Source of the DNA: a virus
DNA: 31,138 nucleotides
Direction: 5' to 3' (one strand)
UHGV virus genome: UHGV-0171672
Shown here: positions 6,931 through 27,766 of the stretch, piece after piece
Numbering within the stretch: position 1 is the first letter of the stretch
How the letters are laid out: each line of letters begins with the position of its first letter
Translations under genes and position numbers: made by a program
The notes under the pieces: model-generated
Told to the model about the DNA's origin: nothing
Database searches by the model: none
The model's input: only the letters and a program-made list of their open reading frames with translations

Positions 6931-7188
6931 CAGAAACACCCCGCGTATGCAGACAATCACCAGTTGCCAGGTGATATTAATTCGCAACATTCTAACCACA
7001 TCAGCACGCAACACAAAAACCGCTTGCCAGCGCTCGTCGTGTCGGGTTACATTTCCGCTGCACCTCATAAAACGGGTGCCGGGATTTCCACCCCGCTGAC
7101 AAACGAAGCGCACAGCCGCGCCAGCGGTTTTTTTGTGCGTACTGTATCGCCACGTCTTTTTCGCGTCAGAATTATGGCGGGGCGTACA

Positions 7189-7222
7189 GGGCCGACTTCG
7201 GTCGGGCCGGTTTCTTCGTTTG
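7189..7222 (+). terminator. Stem-loop with UUCG-type loop followed by T-rich tract
   Basis: GGGCCGAC-TTCG-GTCGGGCC then GGTTTCTTCGTTT. Confidence 0.3.
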
Positions 7223-7313
7223 CCGGTTGTGGAAACCCTGTACGTCTCGCCACCCTGAGTTTTCCACCTCTGGTTGGTGAGTTTTCAAAATTCACAAACG
7301 AAGAGGCCACACC

Positions 7314-8020: not shown

Positions 8021-10530
8021 GTGACCGCAATGCACAGCTGGCGTACCCGTGGAACGCACCGCTACCGGTTATCGATCCTGAAACGTTCGGCAGAGCACAA
8101 CCAACCGCATTACGCCAGGCCATTCAGAGCTACATCAACGAGGACATTCGCATTGATGCCAGACTGGATGAAGAAACCGTCTCCTTCCTGACAAACACAG
8201 ACGAAGGCAAGCGAATTAATTCGCATCTTCACCACGACGAAGAGCGTCGGGTCAGACTGGAAAAACTGGCGAAGCACAAACGCGAGAATCCGCCCACGGT
8301 GGTATCGGAAGCCATGGCAGAACTTCGCGCCCTGCCCTCGTTTCTTGGCAACGTGCTCATTCGTGATCTGGCGCGTTTAAACCGCAAACAACAAAGCGCC
8401 CGCAATGAAGGCGTGAAAAACAACAACACTCACGTGGCCGATAACTTCGTTCGCCGTGGACTGCGCACACGCCTGAAACGCATCGAACAGGTGAATGAAT
8501 GCTTCGCCACGACGGCATTCAAAGCCACCGCAGCGCGTCATCGCCTTGATGAATTACTCATGCTGCCACAACTCAACCGTGATCAAATTCAGCGCCTTGC
8601 CACACTAACGGCGGCGGCATTTTCCACCGAACTGGAACGCATATGTGATGAAGTTACTGAGCGGACAGGAAAAGGCGACGATAACCTGTTTACCTGGTTG
8701 CTGACTTACCAGCAGCTGGCGCGCATGGCAATAAAACTGGGCGTGAACCCACCATACTGGCCGTCACTCGAGATCAGACGTGACCGCCGCACGGCACCAG
8801 ACCCTGAACTGGTACCGGGTGCGGTAATGCGTATCACCTGCGCCACCTGGTGGAACAACCAGCTGCGCCACCTCGCTGATCTCTGGCGGGAGGAATTACT
8901 GCGTGCCGCCGGAAGAGTATCGCGCAAGGCATCCCCCTACATCAGCCATGAGTCACTCCAGGAATTCCGGGAGAAACGCCAGCGCACCCGTGATTTTCTC
9001 AAAAGCTGGGACATTGAAAACGAAGACGGTGAACGCTTGAGTCTGGAGGACGTGTACTGGTCAGGGCTGGGGAATCCGCGCAACCGCCGCAACGAGATGA
9101 TGGCCTGCGTCAGAGGGATGGAACAGGTCGCCGAATCGCGTGGTGACTCCGCGTTCTTCGTGACAGTAACCTGCCCTTCCCGCTTTCACAGCGTGAACGA
9201 GGACGGCAGCCTGAACCCGAAATACAACGGTGCCACCGTGCGCGATGCCAGTGATTATCTGGTTTACGACGTCTTTGCAGCTGCAAGAAAAAAACTCAAC
9301 AAAGAAGGCCTGAGCTGGTACGGGGTGCGCACCGTTGAGCCACACCATGACGGCACACCGCACTGGCACATGCTGGTATTCACCGCCCCGGACAATGAAG
9401 AACGCATCATTGAAATCATGCGTGACGCAGCAATCAAATCAGATCGCGCAGAACTGGGGAATGATATTTCTCCGCGCTTCAAGTGCGAAAAAATCGACCC
9501 GGCAAAAGGCACACCGGCAAGCTACATCGCAACCTATATTGGCAAGAACCTGGACGCCAGCACCTTTCACGACAATGACCCGAAAACCGGCAAACCTTAC
9601 GCCGATAAAGAATCGGGAAAAACCATGGCGGAAACCGTGGAAAACGCCATTGCCTGGGCGAGTCTCCACCGCATCCGGCAGTTCCAGTTCTTCGGTATCC
9701 CGCCCCGACAGGTATGGCGTGAACTCCGCCGCCTTGCCGGACAAATGGAGCGTAACCCCGCATCACCGAAGCGCCTGGACCATGACGACATTGACGCCAT
9801 TCTGGCCGCCGCTGACGTGGGGTGTTTTGCCACCTACATCAACCGTCAGGGCGGCGTGCTCATTCCACGCAACCTGTACCTGATCCGCACCGCATACGAA
9901 ACCGCAGATGAGGCCAACGACTACGGCGAATTCCCGCAGCGCATCTACGGAATTTGTGCCCCGTCGCTCGGCGAGCGCTACACCATCTGTACCCATCCGG
10001 ACGAATGGAAACTGGTCAGAAAAGAAGCGAAATCCGACAACAGCACGGACGAGGGTTTTGACGTTGGGGGCGGCTTCGCCGCACCTTGGACTCGTGGCAA
10101 TAACTGTCCCCATGATGAAAAAACAGACACCGGAGAGGGTAAAAACCCACCACCGGAAACCAGGAAAGAACAAAAACTGGTCGTCCCGGGAGGTGATTTG
10201 GGTGAGTGGTTAAGGTCACTGACCCCCACAAAGCGAAAACAACTCACCAGGCAGCTGAAAGATGCGCCATCTGACACAAAAACCGTGAAAACCGGCGGCC
10301 CCACCACGCCCGATGACGTCATACATGTGCGTACAGCATTGCCGCTGACTGACGTCACCACCACCGTAATCAAGTCGGCACTGAGCGCGACGGGCGAGGA
10401 GCTACACAGTGGCGCAGCACTTTCCGTACACAGAGGTGCACGCGTTCGCCTGCCTGACGGGCGGATTGTGCACTGGGATGAGAAATCACGAAGCCTGGTG
10501 GCAGCAGATCAACCGGAGGTGAACCCATGA
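8017..10530 (+). CDS. A: Rolling-circle replication initiation endonuclease (P2 gpA-like)
   Basis: HUH motif TPHWHMLVF and paired tyrosines YIATYIGK; 837 aa. Confidence 0.9.
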   Translation: MSDRNAQLAYPWNAPLPVIDPETFGRAQPTALRQAIQSYINEDIRIDARLDEETVSFLTNTDEGKRINSHLHHDEERRVRLEKLAKHKRENPPTVVSEAMAELRALPSFLGNVLIRDLARLNRKQQSARNEGVKNNNTHVADNFVRRGLRTRLKRIEQVNECFATTAFKATAARHRLDELLMLPQLNRDQIQRLATLTAAAFSTELERICDEVTERTGKGDDNLFTWLLTYQQLARMAIKLGVNPPYWPSLEIRRDRRTAPDPELVPGAVMRITCATWWNNQLRHLADLWREELLRAAGRVSRKASPYISHESLQEFREKRQRTRDFLKSWDIENEDGERLSLEDVYWSGLGNPRNRRNEMMACVRGMEQVAESRGDSAFFVTVTCPSRFHSVNEDGSLNPKYNGATVRDASDYLVYDVFAAARKKLNKEGLSWYGVRTVEPHHDGTPHWHMLVFTAPDNEERIIEIMRDAAIKSDRAELGNDISPRFKCEKIDPAKGTPASYIATYIGKNLDASTFHDNDPKTGKPYADKESGKTMAETVENAIAWASLHRIRQFQFFGIPPRQVWRELRRLAGQMERNPASPKRLDHDDIDAILAAADVGCFATYINRQGGVLIPRNLYLIRTAYETADEANDYGEFPQRIYGICAPSLGERYTICTHPDEWKLVRKEAKSDNSTDEGFDVGGGFAAPWTRGNNCPHDEKTDTGEGKNPPPETRKEQKLVVPGGDLGEWLRSLTPTKRKQLTRQLKDAPSDTKTVKTGGPTTPDDVIHVRTALPLTDVTTTVIKSALSATGEELHSGAALSVHRGARVRLPDGRIVHWDEKSRSLVAADQPEVNP

Positions 10531-11845: not shown

Positions 11846-11886
11846 GTTACCCTTAGCAGCGAGGGTAACACAGGATTTCTTTTTTC
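11846..11886 (+). terminator. Rho-independent terminator ending the rightward early operon
   Basis: GTTACCC-N10-GGGTAAC stem followed by ACAGGATTTCTTTTTTC. Confidence 0.6.
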
Positions 11887-12592
11887 AGTCAAACCGAAAT
11901 CGGCCGCTTGTCGCGTATGCATAGGTGACCACCGCACCCAGCGCATTCACACGCTTCTTCACATAAATCACATTACCATCCTGATAGTCACCGTATGGGT
12001 AGCAAATAAAGATTGTTTTTTGCAAATCAGGATCATCAACAAATGCCCCTGAACAACTTTTTGAGCTACCGCGACTGTACTCATAGGGAGCGGAATAGAA
12101 TGAATCTTCACCCGGAAGAAAATATATCAGCGTAACCAGGAGGGTAAACAGAATCATCCAGGTAAGAAGGCACATACCCGAAAAAAACTTAAGATACGAT
12201 GTAACCCCGGTAAATTTAGACCGATCAACCAGGTTCTTTTTCAACAGGCACAGTGAGACAAAAACCGAAAGCACCACAGACACTGAAACAAGGCAGTTTG
12301 TCGTGAACGAATAAAGGTAGGTAATTCTGTAAACATCGTTTCGCCACCAAATAAAAAGAAAAATCCCCCCCAAAACAGAAAGCGTGACAAAAGTTAAATA
12401 AGGATATGAGTAATTTTTCACAGTTCTCACCCGGCAGTCTCCCACTGACTCAGACAGATGAATATCATCACCACCTGCCACAAAAAATCGCAAGATCAAA
12501 ACTACACAAAAGCGCACGAAATTGCACAATTTTTCTAATGTACTTTTTCCCCATTCCGCCCGGTAACGGCGCTGGCTGAGGCCGGTTTGCAC
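11885..12592 (-). CDS. Multi-TM membrane protein (cargo island, module 2); start uncertain
   Basis: At least three hydrophobic helices plus a ~80-aa C-terminal soluble region. The first ~25 codons of the track ORF overlap promoter-like repeat copy A, so a downstream GTG (12421 or 12430, after GGGTGAG) is the more likely start. Confidence 0.5.
   Translation of the reverse strand: MQTGLSQRRYRAEWGKSTLEKLCNFVRFCVVLILRFFVAGGDDIHLSESVGDCRVRTVKNYSYPYLTFVTLSVLGGIFLFIWWRNDVYRITYLYSFTTNCLVSVSVVLSVFVSLCLLKKNLVDRSKFTGVTSYLKFFSGMCLLTWMILFTLLVTLIYFLPGEDSFYSAPYEYSRGSSKSCSGAFVDDPDLQKTIFICYPYGDYQDGNVIYVKKRVNALGAVVTYAYATSGRFRFD
12511..12576. repeat. Promoter-like direct repeat, copy A
   Basis: agcgcacgaaattgcacaatttttctaatgtactttttcccc... 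aligns at ~75% identity (hand alignment) with 15438-15501. Confidence 0.5.
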
Positions 12593-12759
12593 GGTGCACG
12601 AAAAACGAGGCGAGTAGTGGATGAGTAAAAATTAATAATAAGTATAAGCAATGTCGATAAACCAAGACACAACAAGTATTCAACACAATTAATCATGCAC
12701 GTGCAAATAGCAATAACATTAACACATTATTTATATAAAAACAATCTGATATTATTTCG

Positions 12760-12790
12760 GTTGTGGGCTTGGTATTTTCAAACCCACAAC
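12760..12790 (-). terminator. Perfect 8-bp stem hairpin downstream of the three-gene module (non-canonical terminator candidate)
   Basis: GTTGTGGG-N15-CCCACAAC, 35 nt past the stop of the 263-aa gene in an AT-rich spacer; no clean U-tract. Confidence 0.25.
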
Positions 12791-12824
12791 AATAATATTA
12801 TTTCGAGATATTAAACATAGACAA

Positions 12825-13616
12825 TCACCCTATTTTTCTATGCATTTTCATGAGTTCCCTTATTAAGCTAGCATGAAAGATTGATACATCAGAAATCCTT
12901 GTATCAATAGATGAATCAATATTATCAGAAACCTTTTGCTCAAATAAATCGCAGATACCATCAAGTGACTCAATATCTTTTTCCAACTTAGAAAAACCCT
13001 TAAATAGATATAATGAATCCCTTAACTCCCCAAGCTTTGAAAATAGTTGGCTATCTAGTAATGATATAAATTCATCAGAGGGAAGCCCCATCGCATCCTT
13101 AAAATCTTCCGTAACTTCAAAAGCTAATCCATTAATTTTAGGGAGAATAACTTCTCGTAACCAATACCCTTCGTTTATAGCTTCATTTCTTCCTTTATAA
13201 TGCTGCCACAAAGGAACCCCTACAGATGCAATTAGCGCAATAATTGAAATTGCTATAGAGTACCATTCAGGTCCTGATTCAGGAACTCTAACGATATTAT
13301 AGAGATTCCCCGATGAGGTTGAGGGGTAATATCCATTCAGAACATAATTATCAGGTTTATCATAAAGAAGGTGCGGTGTAAACTTCCTTTCATAACTATT
13401 GCATAATTTTAGATCGCTATTTTTTCCAATGCATATATCAGCATTAAAAATGTTTCCACTCTTTGGTTCTATTACGTGAGACTCTGAATTTTGCGAATCC
13501 ATGTTAGACGCGGTTCTTTCTAGATATGTCGCAGAGCAAGCGGATATATTAACAAAAAAAATGACAGGCAATGCTGTCATTTTAAAAACAGAACACAAAT
13601 CAGAAGAACGGAACAT
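12825..13616 (-). CDS. Lipoprotein-like membrane protein with internal TM helix (cargo island)
   Basis: N-terminus MFRSSDLCSVFKMTALPVIFFVNISAC has a lipobox-like ISAC; internal helix WYSIAISIIALIASVGVPLW; 17-nt overlap with the upstream gene. Confidence 0.6.
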   Translation of the reverse strand: MFRSSDLCSVFKMTALPVIFFVNISACSATYLERTASNMDSQNSESHVIEPKSGNIFNADICIGKNSDLKLCNSYERKFTPHLLYDKPDNYVLNGYYPSTSSGNLYNIVRVPESGPEWYSIAISIIALIASVGVPLWQHYKGRNEAINEGYWLREVILPKINGLAFEVTEDFKDAMGLPSDEFISLLDSQLFSKLGELRDSLYLFKGFSKLEKDIESLDGICDLFEQKVSDNIDSSIDTRISDVSIFHASLIRELMKMHRKIG

Positions 13617-13944
13617 TTCGATGTAATCCTCTTCTCACAGCCCTATCCAGCTCAGAAAGCATTCCTTCTTTATAATTCACTCCATCTAAAGATGTTCTGC
13701 TATAAAATTCATTCGGAGATGAAAAAAGAGGCAATATATTCTCTAGCATACCCAAAAAGTATGAGCTTGACACAACCACACCATTCGGAATTGATAGAAA
13801 AATCCTATCATTGTTATCAAAAGTAAAGCGATCTATGCCAAAGAAACTATATGCCTTGCGACCATTATCACGCCCAGCAAATAATTTCTTGCCGCCATCT
13901 TTAACTAATTTATTGAAATCTATATAAATATTTGCCATTTTCAT
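13600..13944 (-). CDS. Small STAS-like (DUF4325-like) protein, partner of the GHKL ATPase
   Basis: 114 aa; segment IFLSIPNGVVVSSSYFLGMLENIL resembles the SSSF-type motif of DUF4325/STAS proteins; SD GAGGAA; 11 nt after the ATPase stop. Confidence 0.55.
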   Translation of the reverse strand: MKMANIYIDFNKLVKDGGKKLFAGRDNGRKAYSFFGIDRFTFDNNDRIFLSIPNGVVVSSSYFLGMLENILPLFSSPNEFYSRTSLDGVNYKEGMLSELDRAVRRGLHRNVPFF

Positions 13945-13955
13945 TTACCTATTCC

Positions 13956-15332
13956 TCAGGTTCTTTGAGTTGCATTTTCCGGTAAAGGAAAACGTATATT
14001 AATCATAACTCCCGGAAAACGGGCTTTCTGCATACACTTAAGATAGGTACGATCTGGTTCAGATTCAAGCCCTGTATTATTAAATGGATAAGTGAATTTG
14101 TCACTTTGGTTATCTAACGTTTGCTTTTTCAACTTATAAGAACCATCAAAGTTTATATGTGTGCATCCAGAAATTAAAGACATTCTGATGTTTCCACTTA
14201 GTTCTTTGGATAGTTCTTTTAAACTATCATGCATATCCTGGAAAAACTTCAATAGCTCAATGGTTCCCGTACCAGAACTATCTGTCTCCGTTTCATTTTT
14301 ACAACTAACCCGCCCCTGCAAAGCAGCGACTGTAATCAAACCTTCTCTAAACATCCCTTTTTTATTTATGTGTTTTTCCACATAAGGGATTATGTGATTG
14401 TTATATGAATAATGTTCTAAAGAAAGTCCTGAAAAAGTTTCATCAATAGTTTTTCCAAAGTTAAAAACAGCTATTTCACATGTTGGCTGTTTTAAGCCAT
14501 TATTTACAAACCCCCTCAAATACCAACGCGGACGCTGCTCAAGCCCACAATGTCTCTCTGCATTATCAAGTAATTCGCCCATGCAAGATGTTAGATGGTT
14601 TTCTGCCTTGCTAACTAATTTTAATTGATGATCACTTAGACACTCGTTTATATAATTAGTGAATTTCTCAGACATTCTATTTTTGGTATCTTGTGCAAAT
14701 GCAGACGCATTTTCCTTGCCGATACTATCAGCAGAGAATATTCTTTTCTTAGGGTTATCTTTTTTCGATTTTTCTGTTTCATCATGCACCTTCCCTGGCG
14801 TCACTTTATTTATTTCTTTAACCAACCCGATGTCACGAATAATTTCTAAATATTTTTCATCCTTCGGATAAATGCCATTAAGTTGTACTTGAGCATCTTT
14901 TAAATTTATATTGTGACGTTTGGCTGAGCTCAGTGCAACACCAAGGAGACATTCCGCACCTAAACAATGCTTTTTATTTTTAGTATAATCAAGCAAATAT
15001 GATTTACGTTTACCCCTGGCAATCAATCTAGTTACACCATGAATAAACAAAAGAGATTTTTCTGGATGATCAAACAAATCGAAATATTTAGGTATTATTA
15101 TTCTATCTTCTTTGCGACGAAGAGTTGCAGTATCATATTTCTTTACGGATGAAATACTTTCAATAAAAGTAGCCACCTGACTTTTCACTGGTGTTACTTC
15201 GTCAGAAAAATGTAACCTTTCATAGGCTTTATATTTAATTCTTCTTTTATTTTTTCTCTCAACGCCTTTTAAAAAGCGAATCCAACCACGTAAAAAGCGT
15301 TTTCTTGCATCCTTTTTATCTATTTTTTTCAC
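13956..15332 (-). CDS. GHKL-type (histidine-kinase-like) ATPase with basic N-terminal domain
   Basis: N-box ELLDNAERH (encoded around 14551-14577) and Gly-rich DSSGTGTIELL; GTG start at 15332 after AAGGTGA; K/R-rich ~240-aa N-terminal region. Confidence 0.7.
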   Translation of the reverse strand: MKKIDKKDARKRFLRGWIRFLKGVERKNKRRIKYKAYERLHFSDEVTPVKSQVATFIESISSVKKYDTATLRRKEDRIIIPKYFDLFDHPEKSLLFIHGVTRLIARGKRKSYLLDYTKNKKHCLGAECLLGVALSSAKRHNINLKDAQVQLNGIYPKDEKYLEIIRDIGLVKEINKVTPGKVHDETEKSKKDNPKKRIFSADSIGKENASAFAQDTKNRMSEKFTNYINECLSDHQLKLVSKAENHLTSCMGELLDNAERHCGLEQRPRWYLRGFVNNGLKQPTCEIAVFNFGKTIDETFSGLSLEHYSYNNHIIPYVEKHINKKGMFREGLITVAALQGRVSCKNETETDSSGTGTIELLKFFQDMHDSLKELSKELSGNIRMSLISGCTHINFDGSYKLKKQTLDNQSDKFTYPFNNTGLESEPDRTYLKCMQKARFPGVMINIRFPLPENATQRT

Positions 15333-15429
15333 TATTCACCTTACTTAACAAACATCTATACTACTTCGTTGCAAAGTATACATATCACTTGCTAATACAC
15401 AATATGGCTTCGAGATAATCCGCAGCATC

Positions 15430-15456
15430 TGCACAATAGTGCACAAATTTGCATAA
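15430..15456. promoter_or_regulatory. Three TGCA(C/T)AA heptamers at 10-bp spacing (candidate regulator binding array)
   Basis: TGCACAAtagTGCACAAattTGCATAA; two related copies in repeat A (GCGCACG at 12512, TGCACAA at 12523). Confidence 0.35.
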
Positions 15457-15501
15457 TTTTTTTGAACGACTTTTTGCCCTTCCGGCCCGCGTGGCGGCTG
15501 G
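15438..15501. repeat. Promoter-like direct repeat, copy B (upstream of the GHKL ATPase operon)
   Basis: agtgcacaaatttgcataatttttttgaacgactttttgccc...; see copy A at 12511-12576. Confidence 0.5.
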
Positions 15502-15700
15502 ATCCGTCAAGGATCCGTGCGTGCACAAAAAAACACGCTTTTTCTGCGCGCAGGCGACGAGGGAAGGGCGCCCGAATTGAGGGGTGGAAGGCAGGTTGCT
15601 TTATTTGGGGTCGTATTGCGCGTGATACGCCAGCAGTGAAGCCTGTTTTAAAAAACCACATCAAAACATGGTCAGGGAAACAGGCCGTCAGAATGCGTCT

Positions 15701-15732
15701 GGCGAGGTCGGAGATCGGGAGGGAAACGGACG
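15701..15732. other. Candidate cos region
   Basis: GGCGAGGTCGGAGATCGGGAGGGAAACGGACG begins like the P2 cohesive end as I recall it (GGCGAGGCGGGGAAAGCAC) and sits ~70-100 bp beyond the 3' end of Q, as in P2. Memory-based. Confidence 0.25.
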
Positions 15733-15748
15733 TCAGGAGCTGGAGAGT

Positions 15749-18649: not shown

Positions 18650-18667
18650 TGTCGCCACGCTCTTACA
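18650..18667. promoter_or_regulatory. TGT-N12-ACA dyad (Ogr/Delta-type late activator site) in the P/O divergent promoter region
   Basis: TGTcgccacgctcttACA, centred ~57 bp upstream of a plausible O transcription start. Confidence 0.5.
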
Positions 18668-21653: not shown

Positions 21654-22148
21654 ATGAGCATGGTAGCCAGACCCCGTGTGAACGACGCCACGGATGACAC
21701 GACAGACACCGACGACGGAGAAGCGCGCATCAGTACAGACGCGTTCTGGCCGGATATCGTGCTGAAAGAGCTGCGCCTTGCCATGCGCATTCCCGGGCGC
21801 ACCACCACCTCACGTCTGCTGCATTCGGCCACCGAAGCTGTGGCACATGTAACGGCAGAGCTTGACGCCTGGAAACAGAAACAGGAGGCGGCGGGACGGT
21901 CGACACTGGCGGACGTTCCGGCAGCACACATCAACGGTGAGAGCGTGAACGTGCACCGGTATCGACGCGCGGTGTATGCACTGACCCGCGCGGGCGTTCT
22001 TGAGCGTTCGCGGGATGTGGACACCACCGACAAAGGTGATCGCCGGGCCGATGCGCTGGACATGCAGATTGAAGATATGTGGCGCGATGCACGCTGGGCA
22101 ATATCCGATATTCGCGGCGTCAGACGGATTTATGCGGAGCTGATTTAA
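21654..22148 (+). CDS. L: Head completion/stabilisation protein (P2 gpL-like)
   Basis: Position after M; SD AGGAG; 164 aa. Confidence 0.85.
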   Translation: MSMVARPRVNDATDDTTDTDDGEARISTDAFWPDIVLKELRLAMRIPGRTTTSRLLHSATEAVAHVTAELDAWKQKQEAAGRSTLADVPAAHINGESVNVHRYRRAVYALTRAGVLERSRDVDTTDKGDRRADALDMQIEDMWRDARWAISDIRGVRRIYAELI

Positions 22149-22350: not shown

Positions 22351-22641
22351 ATGTTTCAGAGAATTTACGACCACATTACGTTTTTCACATCCGTCATGGT
22401 CACCGGTATAGGGGTTATGACGCTGAGCGAGAAGATGGCGCTGGCAGGACTGATTCTGGGGGCGCTTTCACTGCTGCGCGGATGGATGCACAGAACACGT
22501 ATGGAGCAGGCACAGGAGCGGCGCAATGAGCTTATTGCACGCATTGCCGACCAGATGCAGCACCGACCACTAAAAGGCAGCGAGAAGCGCGCTCTGGAAG
22601 CCCTGAATGCAGACGGGGAATCACATGCCAGGACAGATTAA
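22351..22641 (+). CDS. Holin (two-TM, pinholin-like)
   Basis: ATG at 22351 right after the X stop; two hydrophobic helices; sits directly upstream of a SAR endolysin. Confidence 0.65.
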   Translation: MFQRIYDHITFFTSVMVTGIGVMTLSEKMALAGLILGALSLLRGWMHRTRMEQAQERRNELIARIADQMQHRPLKGSEKRALEALNADGESHARTD

Positions 22642-23164
22642 ACGCTATGCCGTTGCCGCCATCGTGGCGCTGGGTTTTTCGCTGGCCCCCGGGGAGCTGA
22701 GAACCTCACAGGAGGCACAGGAAAAAATTGCCACCTGGGAAGAGTGTCGGGCATTCCCGTACAGGGATATCGCTGGCGTGAAAACAGTGGGTTGTGGCTC
22801 AACGGGAAACGTCCCCGACCGCCACCATACCAAACAGGAAGTTGCCGGTCGATGGGTGAACGATTTACGACGGGCGGAGAACTGCATCAATCAGAATTTC
22901 AATGGCCGCAACATGCCACAGCGCCACTTTGAGGCAATGACGGATGCTGCCTTTAATCTGGGGTGCAAAGGCCTGATGTGGTTTAAGGGGCGTGACGGGA
23001 GGATGCACAGAACAACCATCTGGAAGTTCGCTCAGGGAAAGAACTGGAGCGCAATGTGCGGCAGGCTGACGGATTTTGTGAACAGCGGCGGACGCTATTC
23101 ACAGGGGCTGTTTAACCGGCGCAATGACTTCAGGAACTGGTGTATGAACGGAGTGAAGCAATGA
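22607..23164 (+). CDS. SAR endolysin, T4-lysozyme-like (GH24) muramidase
   Basis: N-terminal weakly hydrophobic Gly/Ala-rich YAVAAIVALGFSLAPG; catalytic E-8-D-5-T spacing in EECRAFPYRDIAGVKT. Alternative start ATG 22625. Confidence 0.85.
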   Translation: MQTGNHMPGQIKRYAVAAIVALGFSLAPGELRTSQEAQEKIATWEECRAFPYRDIAGVKTVGCGSTGNVPDRHHTKQEVAGRWVNDLRRAENCINQNFNGRNMPQRHFEAMTDAAFNLGCKGLMWFKGRDGRMHRTTIWKFAQGKNWSAMCGRLTDFVNSGGRYSQGLFNRRNDFRNWCMNGVKQ

Positions 23165-23595
23165 AAACACCTGCCGTGTTGCTCTGGTTTCTTGCCACCC
23201 TGTTGCTTTGTGGCCTGACAGGCTGGGAAGCATACCGCAAAGGGAAGGAAAGTCTCGGACGGGAACAGATGATGGACATCATAGAGGACAACCGCGCCGC
23301 CATGCAGGAAGTTCGCCATGCATACACAGACTTTTCCAGGGTGATAAACGTGATCCGCATTCTGGACCAGCAACGGATCACAGAAGGAGAGCAACGACGT
23401 GAAGAAATGCAAAAAGCCGTGCAGGGCGACACGTGTGCCAGCGCTTATCCTCCCGCTGCTGTTACTGAGCGGTTGCAGCAACACGCCGCACACGTTGAAA
23501 ACCAGACTCGTTTACGAGCCGGTGCCGACAGTTCTGACAAGGCAGACCCCGGTTCCGGCACTGGAAATACCCGTGACATGGTACAGGGTGACTGA
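23161..23595 (+). CDS. i-spanin (LysB/Rz-like)
   Basis: ATGA overlap with the endolysin; N-terminal TM helix then charged, coiled-coil-like periplasmic region. Confidence 0.7.
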   Translation: MKTPAVLLWFLATLLLCGLTGWEAYRKGKESLGREQMMDIIEDNRAAMQEVRHAYTDFSRVINVIRILDQQRITEGEQRREEMQKAVQGDTCASAYPPAAVTERLQQHAAHVENQTRLRAGADSSDKADPGSGTGNTRDMVQGD

Positions 23596-23710
23596 ATGGA
23601 GCGATCGGCTACTGGAAGCACTCGACACATGCAACGCAGACAAGGCTGCGATCGCCTGGCTGGATAAACAAAGAGCAGAACGGGCGCAAGATGCGCCCCA
23701 TCAGGAGTAA
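23399..23710 (+). CDS. o-spanin lipoprotein (LysC/Rz1-like), overlapped architecture
   Basis: GTG start after AAGGAGA; signal peptide with lipobox LLSGC; begins inside the i-spanin gene in another frame and extends beyond it. Confidence 0.7.
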   Translation: MKKCKKPCRATRVPALILPLLLLSGCSNTPHTLKTRLVYEPVPTVLTRQTPVPALEIPVTWYRVTEWSDRLLEALDTCNADKAAIAWLDKQRAERAQDAPHQE

Positions 23711-23713
23711 ACG

Positions 23714-25684
23714 ATGAGCAAAAAACACTTTGAACTGATTACTGCCACCAACCGCGCAGAATTCGCTGAAAAAGTTAACAAGCGGTTACAGGAGGGCTGG
23801 GAACTTCTCGGTAATGCCGGTATTGCATCAGAGCCGGGAGTCCCCTGGTATCTCATGCAGGCTATGGTTTCAGGCAGTGATGACCAGGGAGGCACCATTA
23901 TCACCCCGACATCCGACAGCGAACCGGAGTGGTATTACGTTGTGGTGAGCGCTGGCCAGTCCAACTCTATGGCATACGGTGAGGGGTTACCTCTCCCGGA
24001 AAGTTACGATAAACCCGATTCGCGCATTCGCCAGCTGGCACGCCGCAGCACCGTAACCCCGAGCGGAAAAGCTTGTGCCTATAACGACATCATTCTGGCG
24101 GATCACTGCCTGCATGACGTGCAGGATATGAGCCAGTACAACCACCCGAAAGCCGACCTGAACAAAGGTCAGTATGGCTGTGTGAGTCAGGGATTGCACA
24201 TTGCGAAGCGCCTGCTGCCATTTATCCCGGCAAATGCGGGGATCCTTCTGGTCCCATGCAGCCGTGGCGGTTCCGGCTTTACAACCGGTGATGCGGGGCA
24301 ATTCAGCGAGATCGGCGGCGCAACTGAAAAATCCTGCCGCTGGGGAACGAACACGCCGCTGTACAAGGATTTAATCAGCCGCACAAAAGCAGCGCTGGCG
24401 AAAAATCCGAAAAACGTCCTGCTGGCCGTCTGCTGGACACAGGGCGAGGCAGATCTTGAGAAAGAACAAAACGCCGCACAGCATAAAGATCTTTTCACAG
24501 CCATGGTGAAGCAGTTCCGGGCTGACCTGGCCGATGTTGCGAAGCAGTGCAACCAGGGCAACCCTGAAAGCGTGCCGTGGATTTGTGGAGATACCACCTA
24601 CCACTGGAAAAAAACCTACGAAGCACAGTACGCAACCGTGTATGGCGGATACAAAAACAGCACTGAGAAGAATATTGTTTTTGTGCCTTTTGTTACGGAT
24701 GAGTACGGGAAAAACACCCCAACAAACGAGCCGACAGAAGATCCGGATATTGCGGAAGCGGGTTATTACGGTGCCGCATCCCGCAGTAGCGGAAACTGGG
24801 TAAGCCATCTGCGTGGAACGCACTTCAGCTCATGGGCCCGCCGGGGCATTATTGCCGATCGCATGGCGTCAGCAATCCTGCTTAACGTCGGCCGCACGCT
24901 GCCATTTATTGCGGGTACAGAGCCGGAACGCGTGGCAAAACCATCACAGGATGCACCGGGCGGCATCAGTAAGCCATCTTCACCGGAAGCAGAACAACCG
25001 GCAGTCAGACCGGGGCCGGTCACGCTCATGAGTCTGCTGGCATCATCTCCTGAACTGGAAAGCCAGGGCTGGACGCTGAGCGAAGGCAAAAACGGGGCCA
25101 ACACACCAAAACAACTGAAAGACATGCTGATCGGTGATGAGGAAGCAACAGGGAAAAAAGCCCTGAAACTGACCAAACAGGAAGGCAATACCTGGTATCT
25201 GGAGCATAAGGCCGGTAATGGTGCTGACCTTCTGAAAAATGGCGGGACTGTAAGTTGCCGATTCAAAATCGAGGGTGAGCTGAAAAAAGACCAGTACGCA
25301 ATGGCGATGTACTGGAAAACATCAGCATTACCGCAGGATGTGAAATTACTGGGGGCAGATCCAAATAATTTATTGCTCTCATTCTTTCTTCAGACAGACA
25401 GCGCAAACCTGAATCTGATGTATCACAAAACGCCAAACGAACAACTGGGAACCTTTGGTCAGTTCAATAACAACTGGCACACCATAGCGTTTCGTTTTGC
25501 GGGAAACAACAGCACCCAGGTAACACCGGTTCTGGATGGCGTGGACGGAAAACCGTTCATGCTTTCCACATCAAAAGCCGATGTTACCAACGACACGTTA
25601 CGCGTGACCGATATCACGTATCGGCCGACCTATACCGTACTGATTGACAGCCTGAGCGTTGTCGTAAATCAGCCACCGGCATAA
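23714..25684 (+). CDS. SGNH/sialate-O-acetylesterase-like cargo protein (NanS-p-like, DUF1737-type N-terminus)
   Basis: N-terminus MSKKHFELITATNRAEFAEKVNKRLQEGWELLG; GQSN nucleophile motif in VVSAGQSNSMAYGEG; 656 aa inserted between lysis and tail genes. Confidence 0.7.
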   Translation: MSKKHFELITATNRAEFAEKVNKRLQEGWELLGNAGIASEPGVPWYLMQAMVSGSDDQGGTIITPTSDSEPEWYYVVVSAGQSNSMAYGEGLPLPESYDKPDSRIRQLARRSTVTPSGKACAYNDIILADHCLHDVQDMSQYNHPKADLNKGQYGCVSQGLHIAKRLLPFIPANAGILLVPCSRGGSGFTTGDAGQFSEIGGATEKSCRWGTNTPLYKDLISRTKAALAKNPKNVLLAVCWTQGEADLEKEQNAAQHKDLFTAMVKQFRADLADVAKQCNQGNPESVPWICGDTTYHWKKTYEAQYATVYGGYKNSTEKNIVFVPFVTDEYGKNTPTNEPTEDPDIAEAGYYGAASRSSGNWVSHLRGTHFSSWARRGIIADRMASAILLNVGRTLPFIAGTEPERVAKPSQDAPGGISKPSSPEAEQPAVRPGPVTLMSLLASSPELESQGWTLSEGKNGANTPKQLKDMLIGDEEATGKKALKLTKQEGNTWYLEHKAGNGADLLKNGGTVSCRFKIEGELKKDQYAMAMYWKTSALPQDVKLLGADPNNLLLSFFLQTDSANLNLMYHKTPNEQLGTFGQFNNNWHTIAFRFAGNNSTQVTPVLDGVDGKPFMLSTSKADVTNDTLRVTDITYRPTYTVLIDSLSVVVNQPPA

Positions 25685-25748
25685 CAATGCTTCCCAGCCA
25701 TCCGGCGGGGAAGCTCGCTGACAACCGGGAAAATAAAAGGAGCAAGCC

Positions 25749-25913
25749 ATGGGATTTATTCATCAGATAATGTTGTATTTCAGTACCGCCGTATCCCTTC
25801 TGTATCTGATCTCAGGGGGATATAAAGCCGTCCGCAATTTCTGGAACAAAAAGATAGATGAAGCAGCCGCCAGGAAATCAGCTGGCGGAGCGGTCAACGG
25901 GGTATTGCCATAA
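25749..25913 (+). CDS. Small membrane peptide (54 aa) downstream of the esterase
   Basis: MGFIHQIMLYFSTAVSLLYLISGGYKAVRNFWNKK...; SD AAAGGAG; below the ORF-track cutoff. Confidence 0.3.
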   Translation: MGFIHQIMLYFSTAVSLLYLISGGYKAVRNFWNKKIDEAAARKSAGGAVNGVLP

Positions 25914-25969
25914 CAACAGGCACAGCGCATCAGAACGGCACCACTGTCCACAGCAAAAGAAACAAAAAA

Positions 25970-25988
25970 CCCTCCGGTATACGGAGGG
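25970..25988 (-). terminator. Hairpin with flanking A-run (terminator-like on the minus strand)
   Basis: aacaaaaaa-CCCTCCG-GTATA-CGGAGGG; the U-tract would be on the minus strand. Confidence 0.3.
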
Positions 25989-26085
25989 TGCAAGAGGGGA
26001 AAGGTGAGCAAGAAAGAACCCGAATTAAAAGCCATTTAATTTTGAGATTTTTAATTGCCACACGCAACACGTTCTACGGTGTTTT

Positions 26086-26556
26086 ATGCTGAAACTGAAT
26101 TCATTACGCGAAGCTCTGACCAGCAACTGCCGGTGGTGTAAGGCCAGCCCGGAAAAATTCACGGTATTCATTGAATCGGGTGGCATTGAAACCACCGGTG
26201 AATCCCCCTCATTCCTGTACCGCTACAACCTGGTGTTGTTCGTCATGGACTTCACAGAAAGTATCGACAACATCATGCTGCCGGTCATGGCGTGGCTGTA
26301 CAGGAATCAGCCGGATCTTCTTCTCAATCCGGAGAAGAACAAAAGCATCAAATTTTCGACGGCCATCAACGATGACGACAGTGCCGATATCCTGCTGGAA
26401 ATCCCGGTATGGGAGCGCGTGATTGTGCGCCGTAATGACGACGGCACGGTGACGGCAGAGCACATCGGTGAGCCCCCGATAAGCCGGGCACTGGAAGCAT
26501 GGCGCGTAGTGTTTGAAGACATGACGTGGCGAACCGGAACGGAGACCAGCACATGA
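26086..26556 (+). CDS. R: Tail completion protein (P2 gpR-like)
   Basis: 156 aa directly upstream of and ATGA-coupled to S; assigned by position and size. Confidence 0.65.
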   Translation: MLKLNSLREALTSNCRWCKASPEKFTVFIESGGIETTGESPSFLYRYNLVLFVMDFTESIDNIMLPVMAWLYRNQPDLLLNPEKNKSIKFSTAINDDDSADILLEIPVWERVIVRRNDDGTVTAEHIGEPPISRALEAWRVVFEDMTWRTGTETST

Positions 26557-27188
26557 GAGCGGACCGCGAACTGGATGTCATCTTTCAGGATATTCTTTCC
26601 GGCCTGTCGGCAGCCGGAATTCAGCGCACGGCAATGAGCGTGGGTAAGGTCGTCCGACAGCTACAGACAAAACGCATCAGAAGCCAGGTATCCCCGGAAG
26701 GCCAGCCATGGGAGAAACGAAAACGCCGCATCATGCGCATACAAAAAGGCGTGAAGTTTATCTGGAAGGACGGCCAGGTAAGAAACCTGAAAAACTGGAG
26801 CACGTCACAGGGATGTTTCGGGCAGAAAATCACCGGCTACGATACAGACGCCGGGGGGATCAGGACGTTTTACAAGGCAGACATCGGGGACTACCTGGAA
26901 ATTAACACACAGCGCGTCGCAGCAAGAGCATCACGTCGCTCACCTATGTTCGAAAAGCTGAGAACAGCACGCTTTCTGAGAATCATCCCCGACACAAACG
27001 GCGTAAGTGTCGGCTTTCAGGGCCGGGCCGCGCGTATTGCCAGAGTGCACCAGTTCGGTGAGGTGGGCCTGGTATCACCCGGGAACGCCACGAAATACCC
27101 CGTGCGCGAGCTGCTGGGCCTGAACGAAAAAGACAAACAGCAAATCACAGAAACCGTGATTGCCGGACTGGGGAAAGCAGCGAAATGA
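26553..27188 (+). CDS. S: Tail completion / virion morphogenesis protein (P2 gpS-like)
   Basis: ATG at 26553 overlapping the R stop, SD GGAG; position before V. Confidence 0.7.
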   Translation: MRADRELDVIFQDILSGLSAAGIQRTAMSVGKVVRQLQTKRIRSQVSPEGQPWEKRKRRIMRIQKGVKFIWKDGQVRNLKNWSTSQGCFGQKITGYDTDAGGIRTFYKADIGDYLEINTQRVAARASRRSPMFEKLRTARFLRIIPDTNGVSVGFQGRAARIARVHQFGEVGLVSPGNATKYPVRELLGLNEKDKQQITETVIAGLGKAAK

Positions 27189-27766
27189 ACATCGAGCTTA
27201 TGCGTCTGCTGGAAAACATTGTGCGGATTGGTGTGGTTACGGAAATCAACACCGACACCTGGGAGGTGCGTGTGCAGACCGGCGGCCTGACCACAAACTG
27301 GATCCGATGGAACAGCGGGCGGGCCGGAAAATTTAAAATCTGGATCCCCCCATCACCGGACGAACAGGTGTTTCTCCTATGCCCGGGCGGCAATCCGGAA
27401 ACCGCAGTCAGCGCAGGAAGTCTGTACAGCAACGACAACCCGCCACCGGGATCGCTGGAAAACGAAATGGTCATTACCGCGCCGGACGGTGCGGAATTTC
27501 GCTATAACGCACAGGAAAGCAGCCTGACGGCCAGAGGTATAAAAACCGCAACCATTACGGCTGAAACCAGTATCACGCTGGACGCGCCAAAGGTGGAATG
27601 TACGCAGTTGCTGAAGACAAAGACATTCGAGCTGACCAGCGGCGGAACAATGAAAGGCAACGTGAAACACAGTGGCGGCAGCCTCGAATCAAACGGCATC
27701 ACCGTACACACCCACGTACACAGCGGAGTGAAGAGCGGTAGCGATACGAGCGGAGGCCCACAATGA
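27185..27766 (+). CDS. V: Baseplate spike protein (P2 gpV-like)
   Basis: 193 aa, ATGA-coupled to S; position and size match P2 V. Confidence 0.85.
   Translation: MNIELMRLLENIVRIGVVTEINTDTWEVRVQTGGLTTNWIRWNSGRAGKFKIWIPPSPDEQVFLLCPGGNPETAVSAGSLYSNDNPPPGSLENEMVITAPDGAEFRYNAQESSLTARGIKTATITAETSITLDAPKVECTQLLKTKTFELTSGGTMKGNVKHSGGSLESNGITVHTHVHSGVKSGSDTSGGPQ

Follow-up and report, generated by a model that had tools for sequence, protein, structure and literature searches.

The window analysed here is the whole 31,138-nucleotide (nt) stretch of virus genome UHGV-0171672, and the subject of this study is a large gene on its plus strand, at 23714-25684, between the lysis genes and the tail genes. 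The window shares 98-99.6% identity with a prophage of Escherichia coli NCTC9112 located beside the tRNA-Leu/Cys/Gly-pgsA-uvrC locus; since the latter has the full P2-type gene set, we assign the window, from its sequence, to a P2-like (Peduoviridae) E. coli prophage, the major capsid protein of which is of the P2 family. The gene begins with an ATG, encodes 656 amino acids (71.6 kDa) and is assigned as a NanS-p-type sialate O-acetylesterase gene (nanS-p) on the basis of Pfam, phrog_143 and PDB matches. The original prediction, made by a model from the letters of the DNA, had described a large cargo open reading frame (ORF) of exactly this extent starting 4 nt after lysC, and both points hold: the stop codon TAA of lysC occupies 23708-23710 and the ATG starts at 23714, with three bases between them. 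The Shine-Dalgarno sequence of nanS-p, AGGAG (23703-23707), lies within lysC, which encodes an Rz1-like o-spanin (23399-23710, plus strand; Pfam LysC, E=1.1e-12, and RefSeq annotation of the near-identical NCTC9112 prophage).

The same prediction stated that P2 has no gene at this position. This is right for P2 itself (NC_001895), in which lysC (8202-8492) overlaps R (8455-8922), and a comparison with phages that lack the insert found nothing between lysC/Rz1 and R in either P2 or a Klebsiella relative, ST16-OXA48phi5.4, whose Rz1-like gene directly adjoins gpR. As a statement about the group it fails, because many E. coli P2-like prophages carry nanS-p at the lysC/R junction (see below).

Domain architecture of the NanS-p protein

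By homology, the product of the ORF is an intact three-domain enzyme of the NanS-p family, composed of a DUF1737 domain, a NanS-type SGNH esterase domain and a lectin-like C-terminal module. That it is no chance ORF is shown by homology E-values down to 1e-114 and by a full-length match to PHROG family 143 (E=1.6e-296). The NanS-p architecture that had been proposed is supported by the Pfam domains and by matches to the structures 3PT5 and 6YP6, and in the suggested hidden Markov model search both SASA (50.3 bits, cut-off 24.8) and DUF1737 (34.7 bits, cut-off 24) scored above their Pfam thresholds.

The N-terminal domain (residues 3-52, 23720-23869, plus strand) is a P2-like-specific subtype of DUF1737 (PF08410), in agreement with the DUF1737-like N-terminus that had been noticed. 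The alignment of this subtype shows an invariant loop and strand, E40-P41-G42-x-P44-[WF]-Y46-L47-M48-Q49. In the AlphaFold (AF2) model the domain consists of strands at 5-11, 30-38 and 46-53 and a helix at 14-26, with a predicted local distance difference test score (pLDDT) of ~56-83 that falls below 50 in the loop; Foldseek returned no solved DUF1737 structure.

The SGNH type II (NanS-like) esterase domain follows at residues 70-389 (23921-24880, plus strand; phmmer to 3PT5 and Foldseek). It aligns with E. coli NanS (YjhS, 3PT5) over 315 residues with 56% identity (E=8.6e-114), and the SASA match covers residues 143-273. The GQSN nucleophile motif is present as anticipated, at residues 81-84 (23954-23965, plus strand), and this block I contains Gln82 of the oxyanion hole and the nucleophile Ser83, aligned to Gln18 and Ser19 of NanS. 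The catalytic His370, in the sequence THFSSW (codon at 24821-24823, plus strand), aligns to His301 of NanS. The catalytic dyad of NanS is Ser19-His301; its oxyanion hole includes Gln18 and a Gly, and it has no catalytic Asp (PMC9063846). The original prediction had looked for catalytic Ser, His and Asp residues; the Ser and the His are kept, and the Asp part does not apply to the NanS family. Gln82, Ser83 and His370 are invariant in alignments of 42-44 homologues.

A Pro/Ser-rich linker (linker 2, residues 390-433, 24881-25012, plus strand) connects the esterase to the last domain. It contains the motif KPSSPEA, with SSP at residue 422, which resembles RPSSPSG in the same linker of phi24B gp84. 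The C-terminal domain is a lectin-like jelly-roll of the DUF6645 type and a putative carbohydrate-binding module (residues 434-652, 25013-25669, plus strand). It had been estimated at ~250 residues; the domain is indeed present and matches 6YP6, the C-terminal domain of phi24B NanS-p (E=1.3e-63), with a measured length of ~220 residues. Pfam DUF6645 accounts for residues 507-620 (151 bits), likewise above its curated threshold. By Foldseek, the AF2 model has template-modelling scores of 0.89 to 6YP6 and 0.72 to 3PT5, and the C-terminal domain shows remote similarity to sialic-acid- or ganglioside-binding lectin modules (2W68, tetanus toxin Hc). Neither a signal peptide nor a transmembrane segment was found in the protein by hydropathy, its N-terminus not being hydrophobic, and Rfam has no match within or around the gene.

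Purifying selection on nanS-p is evident from the comparison of alleles, the ratio of nonsynonymous to synonymous substitution (dN/dS) being ~0.05-0.15, at saturated dS, for the N-domain and the esterase. A decayed or inactive remnant without current function could be suspected from the missing NCBIfam match, since no model there matches the 656-residue protein, and from the RefSeq name of the product, which is only 'DUF6645 domain-containing protein'. This idea is hardly credible given the uninterrupted reading frame, the retention of all catalytic and family-invariant residues, the purifying selection and the conservation of the gene in 14 genomes. A better name than the current RefSeq one would be 'NanS-p family sialate O-acetylesterase'.

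Distribution, the variable block and exchange of modules

This allele, intact, annotated as a coding sequence and 99.7-99.9% identical at the DNA level, occurs in 14 of 5426 complete E. coli genomes, each time on the chromosome. It is carried by NCTC9112, by the Symbioflor strains G1/2, G6/7 and G8, by UCPROB strains, and by human and wastewater isolates. The proposed link to pathogenic E. coli therefore holds for the NanS-p architecture but not for the carriers of this allele, which are commensal, probiotic and wastewater strains and include no Shiga-toxin pathogens. The 90% protein cluster of this NanS-p has 277 members, and beyond it the next relatives are at most ~60-63% identical. Megablast against 50,697 phage records returned no match to this allele; the 347 phage-record matches are nearly all Shiga toxin (Stx) or lambdoid phages, at 51-59% identity. 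In a one-genome-per-species collection, three-domain relatives occur in Escherichia only (E. albertii and Escherichia sp.), and their N-domains are all of the lambdoid type.

At least five diverged P2-like alleles share the lysC/R junction. The nearest relatives, P0002 and P0004, lie there in P2-like prophages, as does the SCU-172 allele, and the ST131-type P2-like lineage carries the gene at the same junction and has an M15 endolysin (phage records vB_EcoM-569R5 and 'Entero_P88'). The ST131-type lysis cassette/nanS-p junction is present in 375 of the 5426 genomes, ~27 times as many as carry the allele studied here. Phage NanS homologues were noted in the ST131 strain EC958, the phage type not being discussed (PMC5425062), and the ST131-type protein WP_000202148.1 is probably one of them. 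No paper in the literature that we searched ties NanS-p or sialate O-acetylesterase to P2-like phages; nanS-p in P2-like phages is thus common in genomes and undescribed in that literature.

The gene lies in a variable cassette, lysB-lysC-nanS-p-DUF1378 (23100-26080, plus strand), inside a late operon that is otherwise 85-100% conserved. Sliding identity against the comparison loci L004 and L002 is 60-84% from ~23100 (lysB), with 60-80% through the N-domain and the esterase, drops to ~50-60% at 24900-26000 (lectin and DUF1378), and returns to 86% from 26100 (gpR). GC content follows the same division, with 0.49 in the lectin domain and 0.48-0.50 in the divergent 3' block (C-terminal part, DUF1378 and spacer) against 0.55-0.56 in the flanks. 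A recent, close donor of the C-terminal block was not found in the 5426 E. coli genomes, where nothing outside the 14 identical copies exceeds 60-80% identity. Among three prophages with gpN proteins 98-99% identical, the lectin domains are only 30-39% identical.

The three domains have different histories. For the N-terminal domain, P2-like alleles are 52-92% identical to each other and 22-47% identical to lambdoid ones, and the lambdoid types are 50-96% identical among themselves. For the esterase, the P2-like alleles are 63-79% identical to each other and 66-89% identical to lambdoid alleles, the highest value being that of P0004 against phi24B (89%). The lectin ranges over 29-65% within the P2-like group and 36-92% between P2-like and lambdoid alleles, with the P0004 lectin 92% identical to a lambdoid allele. 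At the DNA level, all P2-like/lambdoid alignments begin at nt 192-250 of the gene, which is the start of the esterase domain, and the esterase block of P0004 (nt 192-1173) matches phi24B and BP-4795 at 86-88% identity. Between P2-like pairs, the alignment runs through the 5' end of the gene into lysC wherever blastn aligns that end at all. The N-domain subtype was exclusive to P2-like contexts in our sample (five of five P2-like, none of eight lambdoid); the lambdoid contexts, with the gene order Q, methylase, nanS-p, DUF1378, DUF826, holin, were verified for N-domain types A, C and D. These comparisons suggest that the N-domain stays specific to the phage family and that the esterase and lectin modules are traded with lambdoid alleles.

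Three further candidates were considered and dropped. First, the 689-residue homologues without DUF1737 (P0060 and P0097) might have represented a third N-terminal module. They are followed by DUF1378, DUF826 and a holin remnant, an arrangement also annotated in a phage record, and this candidate was rejected: they are chimeric ORFs formed where a Mu-like prophage has inserted within a lambdoid nanS-p, at its 5' end (L032, 10001-12070; L033; phage record LC727895, H48). Second, co-divergence of the N-domain with gpN was considered: gpN is 98-99% identical in the three prophages with N-domains 75-92% identical, the drop in identity starts at lysB and not in the head genes, and linkage to the lysis cassette explains the pattern equally well. 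Third, the N-domain type does not follow the capsid type in lambdoid phages: the major capsid proteins that accompany BP-4795 (type A), phi24B (type B) and types C and D have no BLASTP similarity to each other, and the N-domains are 50-72% identical.

Searches with the N-domain alone (word-indexed, and HMMER against 1.84 billion representatives) yielded little besides fragments at contig ends and were uninformative. Draft E. coli contigs (L028-L030) often end in nanS-p just past DUF1737, producing records of a 'partial DUF1737 protein' such as P0123 (96 residues, 45 members); the esterase domain, as a multi-copy repeat across the prophages of one genome, likely breaks short-read assembly.

Downstream of nanS-p, a DUF1378 gene (25749-25913, plus strand; Pfam E=6e-21) preceded by AAGGAG (25737-25742) encodes a small membrane protein of 54 residues with one transmembrane segment, 50-56% identical to lambdoid DUF1378. 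DUF1378 is the usual downstream neighbour of nanS-p in lambdoid loci. Of the P2-like nanS-p loci, only P0004 and the one studied here have it, and this suggests that modules were exchanged with the late regions of lambdoid phages. Between DUF1378 and gpR lies a 172-nt spacer (25914-26085), missing from the related loci L005 and L009, in which a strong hairpin, ACCCTCCGGTATACGGAGGGT (25969-25989), is preceded by A6. The hairpin is terminator-like for the minus strand only, where no gene is evident. The tail completion gene gpR (26086-26556, plus strand; Pfam P2_Phage_GpR, E=9.3e-41) bounds the variable block on the right, and from ~26076-26100 onwards the DNA is again similar to that of related prophages.

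The overall gene order is gpL-gpX-holin-like ORF-lysozyme-(lysB-position ORF)-lysC-nanS-p-DUF1378-gpR-gpS. Pfam identifies gpL (21654-22148) and the lysozyme (22607-23164); the holin-like ORF after gpX has a weak Pfam match of 18.5 bits, under the 28.8 cut-off, and the lysB-position ORF has no Pfam match and is called 'hypothetical' in the near-identical NCTC9112 prophage.

Two features lie elsewhere in the prophage. About 3.1 kb at 12612-15736 has no counterpart in the NCTC9112 prophage, which is 98-99.6% identical elsewhere. It contains three co-oriented minus-strand ORFs, 12825-13616 (263 residues), 13600-13944 (114 residues) and 13956-15332 (458 residues), that match neither Pfam nor PADLOC, and a further minus-strand ORF is listed beside it (11885-12592). 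The block lies between the replication/ssb genes and the portal gene Q, which we take to be the classical P2 cargo hotspot (the old/tin position), and is a candidate uncharacterised defence or cargo operon. In the early region, Rfam detects isrK (7060-7134, 64 bits) adjoining a C4 antisense RNA (7170-7257, 82 bits) on the plus strand, a pair that we take to be a P1/P7-type immunity RNA module, presumably unusual for a P2-type phage.

Probable late expression and proposed function

The position of nanS-p suggests that it is embedded in the equivalent of the O operon of P2 and should be produced late after induction. A TGT-N12-ACA site, the half-site pattern of the P2 late activator, lies upstream of gene O (18650-18667, plus strand); it is the sole such site in the late head/lysis region and a likely Ogr-type late promoter. 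None occurs between lysC and R, and overall the pattern is not enriched over shuffled sequences. A crude consensus scan found no plus-strand terminator-like site within 23.7-26.1 kb, and a sigma-70-like scan of 21.5-27.3 kb gave a single match, at 25340-25369 within the nanS-p coding sequence; shuffled sequences give more. With no promoter or terminator of its own found in these scans and a place inside the late operon, nanS-p would be made only after induction. The expression on a late/lysis transcript that had been proposed fits the operon position and the abutment with lysC; release at lysis was itself a deduction. At the end of this region, gpS (26526-27188) overlaps gpV (27185-27766) by positions 27185-27188. 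P2 carries orf30, a terminator and the V promoter at this point, and in the lineage of the window prophage the O operon thus seems to be joined to the V operon.

A classical moron, a lysogenic-conversion gene transcribed on its own and active in the lysogen without induction, might be suggested by the lower GC content of the C-terminal part, DUF1378 and spacer, by the lack of DNA similarity of this block to sister prophages, and by the hairpin-containing spacer after DUF1378. We consider it quite improbable, because the ATG lies 3 nt past the lysC stop with its Shine-Dalgarno sequence inside lysC, flanking promoter and terminator of its own were not found in the scans, whose one sigma-70-like match falls within the coding sequence, and transcription must read through nanS-p to reach the essential tail genes R and S, which follow on the same strand. 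In addition, expression of lambdoid nanS-p is induction-dependent (PMC10462455).

On homology with the characterised enzymes, we propose the following course for the late-made NanS-p. The protein would be produced together with the head, lysis and tail proteins and, having no signal peptide, would reach its extracellular substrate via lysis, so that it would meet extracellular 9-O-acetylated sialoglycans when the cell lyses. The Ser83/His370 dyad, with Gln82 in the oxyanion hole, would remove the 9-O-acetyl group by ester hydrolysis from free sialic acids or from those on mucin O-glycans, and the C-terminal jelly-roll would target the enzyme to glycans. As judged from lambdoid NanS-p, de-O-acetylation would allow the population of lysogens that survives to use the sialic acids of mucus. 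Lambdoid NanS-p proteins have esterase activity and support growth on Neu5,9Ac2 (PMC8065619, PMC10462455).

A different role, serving the phage, would be that of a receptor-modifying esterase that de-O-acetylates capsule (e.g. K1 polysialic acid) or O-antigen, aiding adsorption or preventing re-adsorption to lysed cells. The idea has been raised for NanS-p (PMC8065619), and the lectin hypervariability between prophages with near-identical gpN is a pattern typical of receptor-binding modules. The demonstrated substrates of characterised NanS-p are, however, Neu5,9Ac2 and mucin O-glycans (PMC8065619), and the tail fibre genes of the prophage are separate and complete; we regard this role as unlikely.

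Taken together, we consider it highly probable that the locus encodes an intact NanS-p enzyme that is expressed late and released at lysis, and that it has long been resident, and recombining, at the lysC/R junction of several P2-like lineages rather than having been inserted there once. Several points weigh against this explanation. Overall, this allele shares only 51-63% identity with any other NanS-p, characterised or not, and its function is predicted. The mean pLDDT of the AF2 model is only 61.6, and the active-site geometry consequently rests on the alignment. The promoter and terminator scans were crude consensus scans. Forced expression of a phage NanS homologue altered motility in E. 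coli EC958 (PMC5425062), so effects beyond nutrition are possible. Lastly, the phi24B homologue is bound to the virion; by analogy, a free enzyme released at lysis may be an incomplete description, and the label of cargo may undersell NanS-p.

Possible capsid display and likeness to known systems

The phi24B case raises the question of whether the window protein is also displayed on virions, which would be compatible with its being a late-made NanS-p esterase. In such an arrangement, DUF1737 would anchor the esterase and lectin outside a P2-type gpN capsid, where they would bind or modify mucus or sialoglycans; we put this forward as a tentative possibility. In phi24B, gp84 is an abundant virion protein whose DUF1737 hexamer is plugged into the face-centre hexon pores of a T=9 capsid, and it is autoprocessed in its linkers, with SSP-containing motifs in both as putative sites, the left one being SISSP (bioRxiv 10.64898/2026.04.10.717836). 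For the window protein, display is favoured by this virion-bound homologue, held through the same domain (bioRxiv 10.64898/2026.04.10.717836). It is also favoured by the retention of DUF1737 under purifying selection in all five diverged P2-like alleles, when chromosomal NanS lacks it, by the partition of the N-domain subtype (five of five P2-like against none of eight lambdoid contexts), by the same helix and three strands in the AF2 model, at low pLDDT, and by the location of nanS-p among structural genes. A further point in favour is that gpN hexamers can accept a decoration protein, Psu of P4.

Other observations speak against display. The anchor residue Tyr42, a 'tooth' that enters the hexon pore, and the loop TAGYGAE of phi24B are not conserved in the window protein, which has EPGVPWY instead, with the aromatic pair W45-Y46 near the replaced loop. 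The preprint places binding on the flat face-centre hexons of the T=9 shell (bioRxiv 10.64898/2026.04.10.717836). Lambdoid N-domains that are 50-72% identical accompany major capsid proteins without BLASTP similarity, and thus do not track capsid sequence. Heads of the P2 type are T=7 and are not known to contain face-centre hexons, which counts against display. Finally, although adaptation to the capsid would be compatible with a P2-specific N-domain subtype, linkage of the 5' end of the gene to the P2-type lysB/lysC cassette would explain the partition equally well. We find capsid display on P2-type heads doubtful on balance. The more specific proposal of a modular display system with a backbone-specific anchor, in which the P2-specific DUF1737 subtype would hold a swappable esterase-lectin payload on the T=7 gpN capsid, seems to us rather unlikely. 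If it were true, P2-family phages would, with NanS-p, have a first capsid-decoration protein of their own, whose hypervariable lectin would adjust the virion's binding to particular mucus or surface glycans.

Compared with known systems, the NanS-p of the window is otherwise an expected, divergent member of a characterised family and a largely ordinary finding. NanS is a chromosomal gene of the sialic-acid regulon. Its product (YjhS, 3PT5) shares with the window esterase the SGNH type II fold, the Gln-Ser block, the catalytic His and the lack of a catalytic Asp, but is a single domain of ~326 residues without DUF1737 and lectin, whereas the window protein has three domains and is encoded in a prophage late operon. 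The other P2-like NanS-p proteins (ST131-type WP_000202148.1, SCU-172 WP_114476103.1, P0002 and P0004) have the same junction, architecture and N-domain subtype; relative to this allele, their N-domains are 52-77%, their esterases 66-79% and their lectins 36-56% identical, and the ST131-type locus differs from the window prophage in its endolysin (M15 peptidase).

The lambdoid NanS-p proteins, 933W L0105/z1466 and phi24B vb_24B_21 (gp84), have the same domain order (DUF1737-SASA-DUF6645), the same catalytic residues, no signal peptide and SSP in linker 2, and their genes likewise lie in the prophage late region beside the lysis cassette and are followed by DUF1378. They are 51-59% identical to the window protein overall and only 26-32% in the N-domain. 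The window gene is downstream of the lysis genes in a P2-type operon presumably activated by Ogr, whereas lambdoid nanS-p is upstream of holin S under Q antitermination, and the hosts of this allele are commensal strains, not Shiga-toxin-producing E. coli. NanS-p has so far been discussed almost only as an accessory of Shiga-toxin/lambdoid prophages of pathogenic E. coli; it is also a fixed, recombining part of the P2-family late operon in commensal, probiotic and extraintestinal pathogenic (ST131) strains.

The P2-like locus moreover allows the new claim of a DUF1737 capsid anchor to be tested directly on P2-type capsids. T4 Hoc and phi24B gp84 are capsid decorations that bind mucus or glycans, and the window protein shares with gp84 the DUF1737 domain, by which gp84 is anchored at hexon centres, together with a putative outward-facing glycan-binding payload, the two differing in the anchor loop and in the capsid concerned, which is T=7 in the P2 family and T=9 in phi24B.

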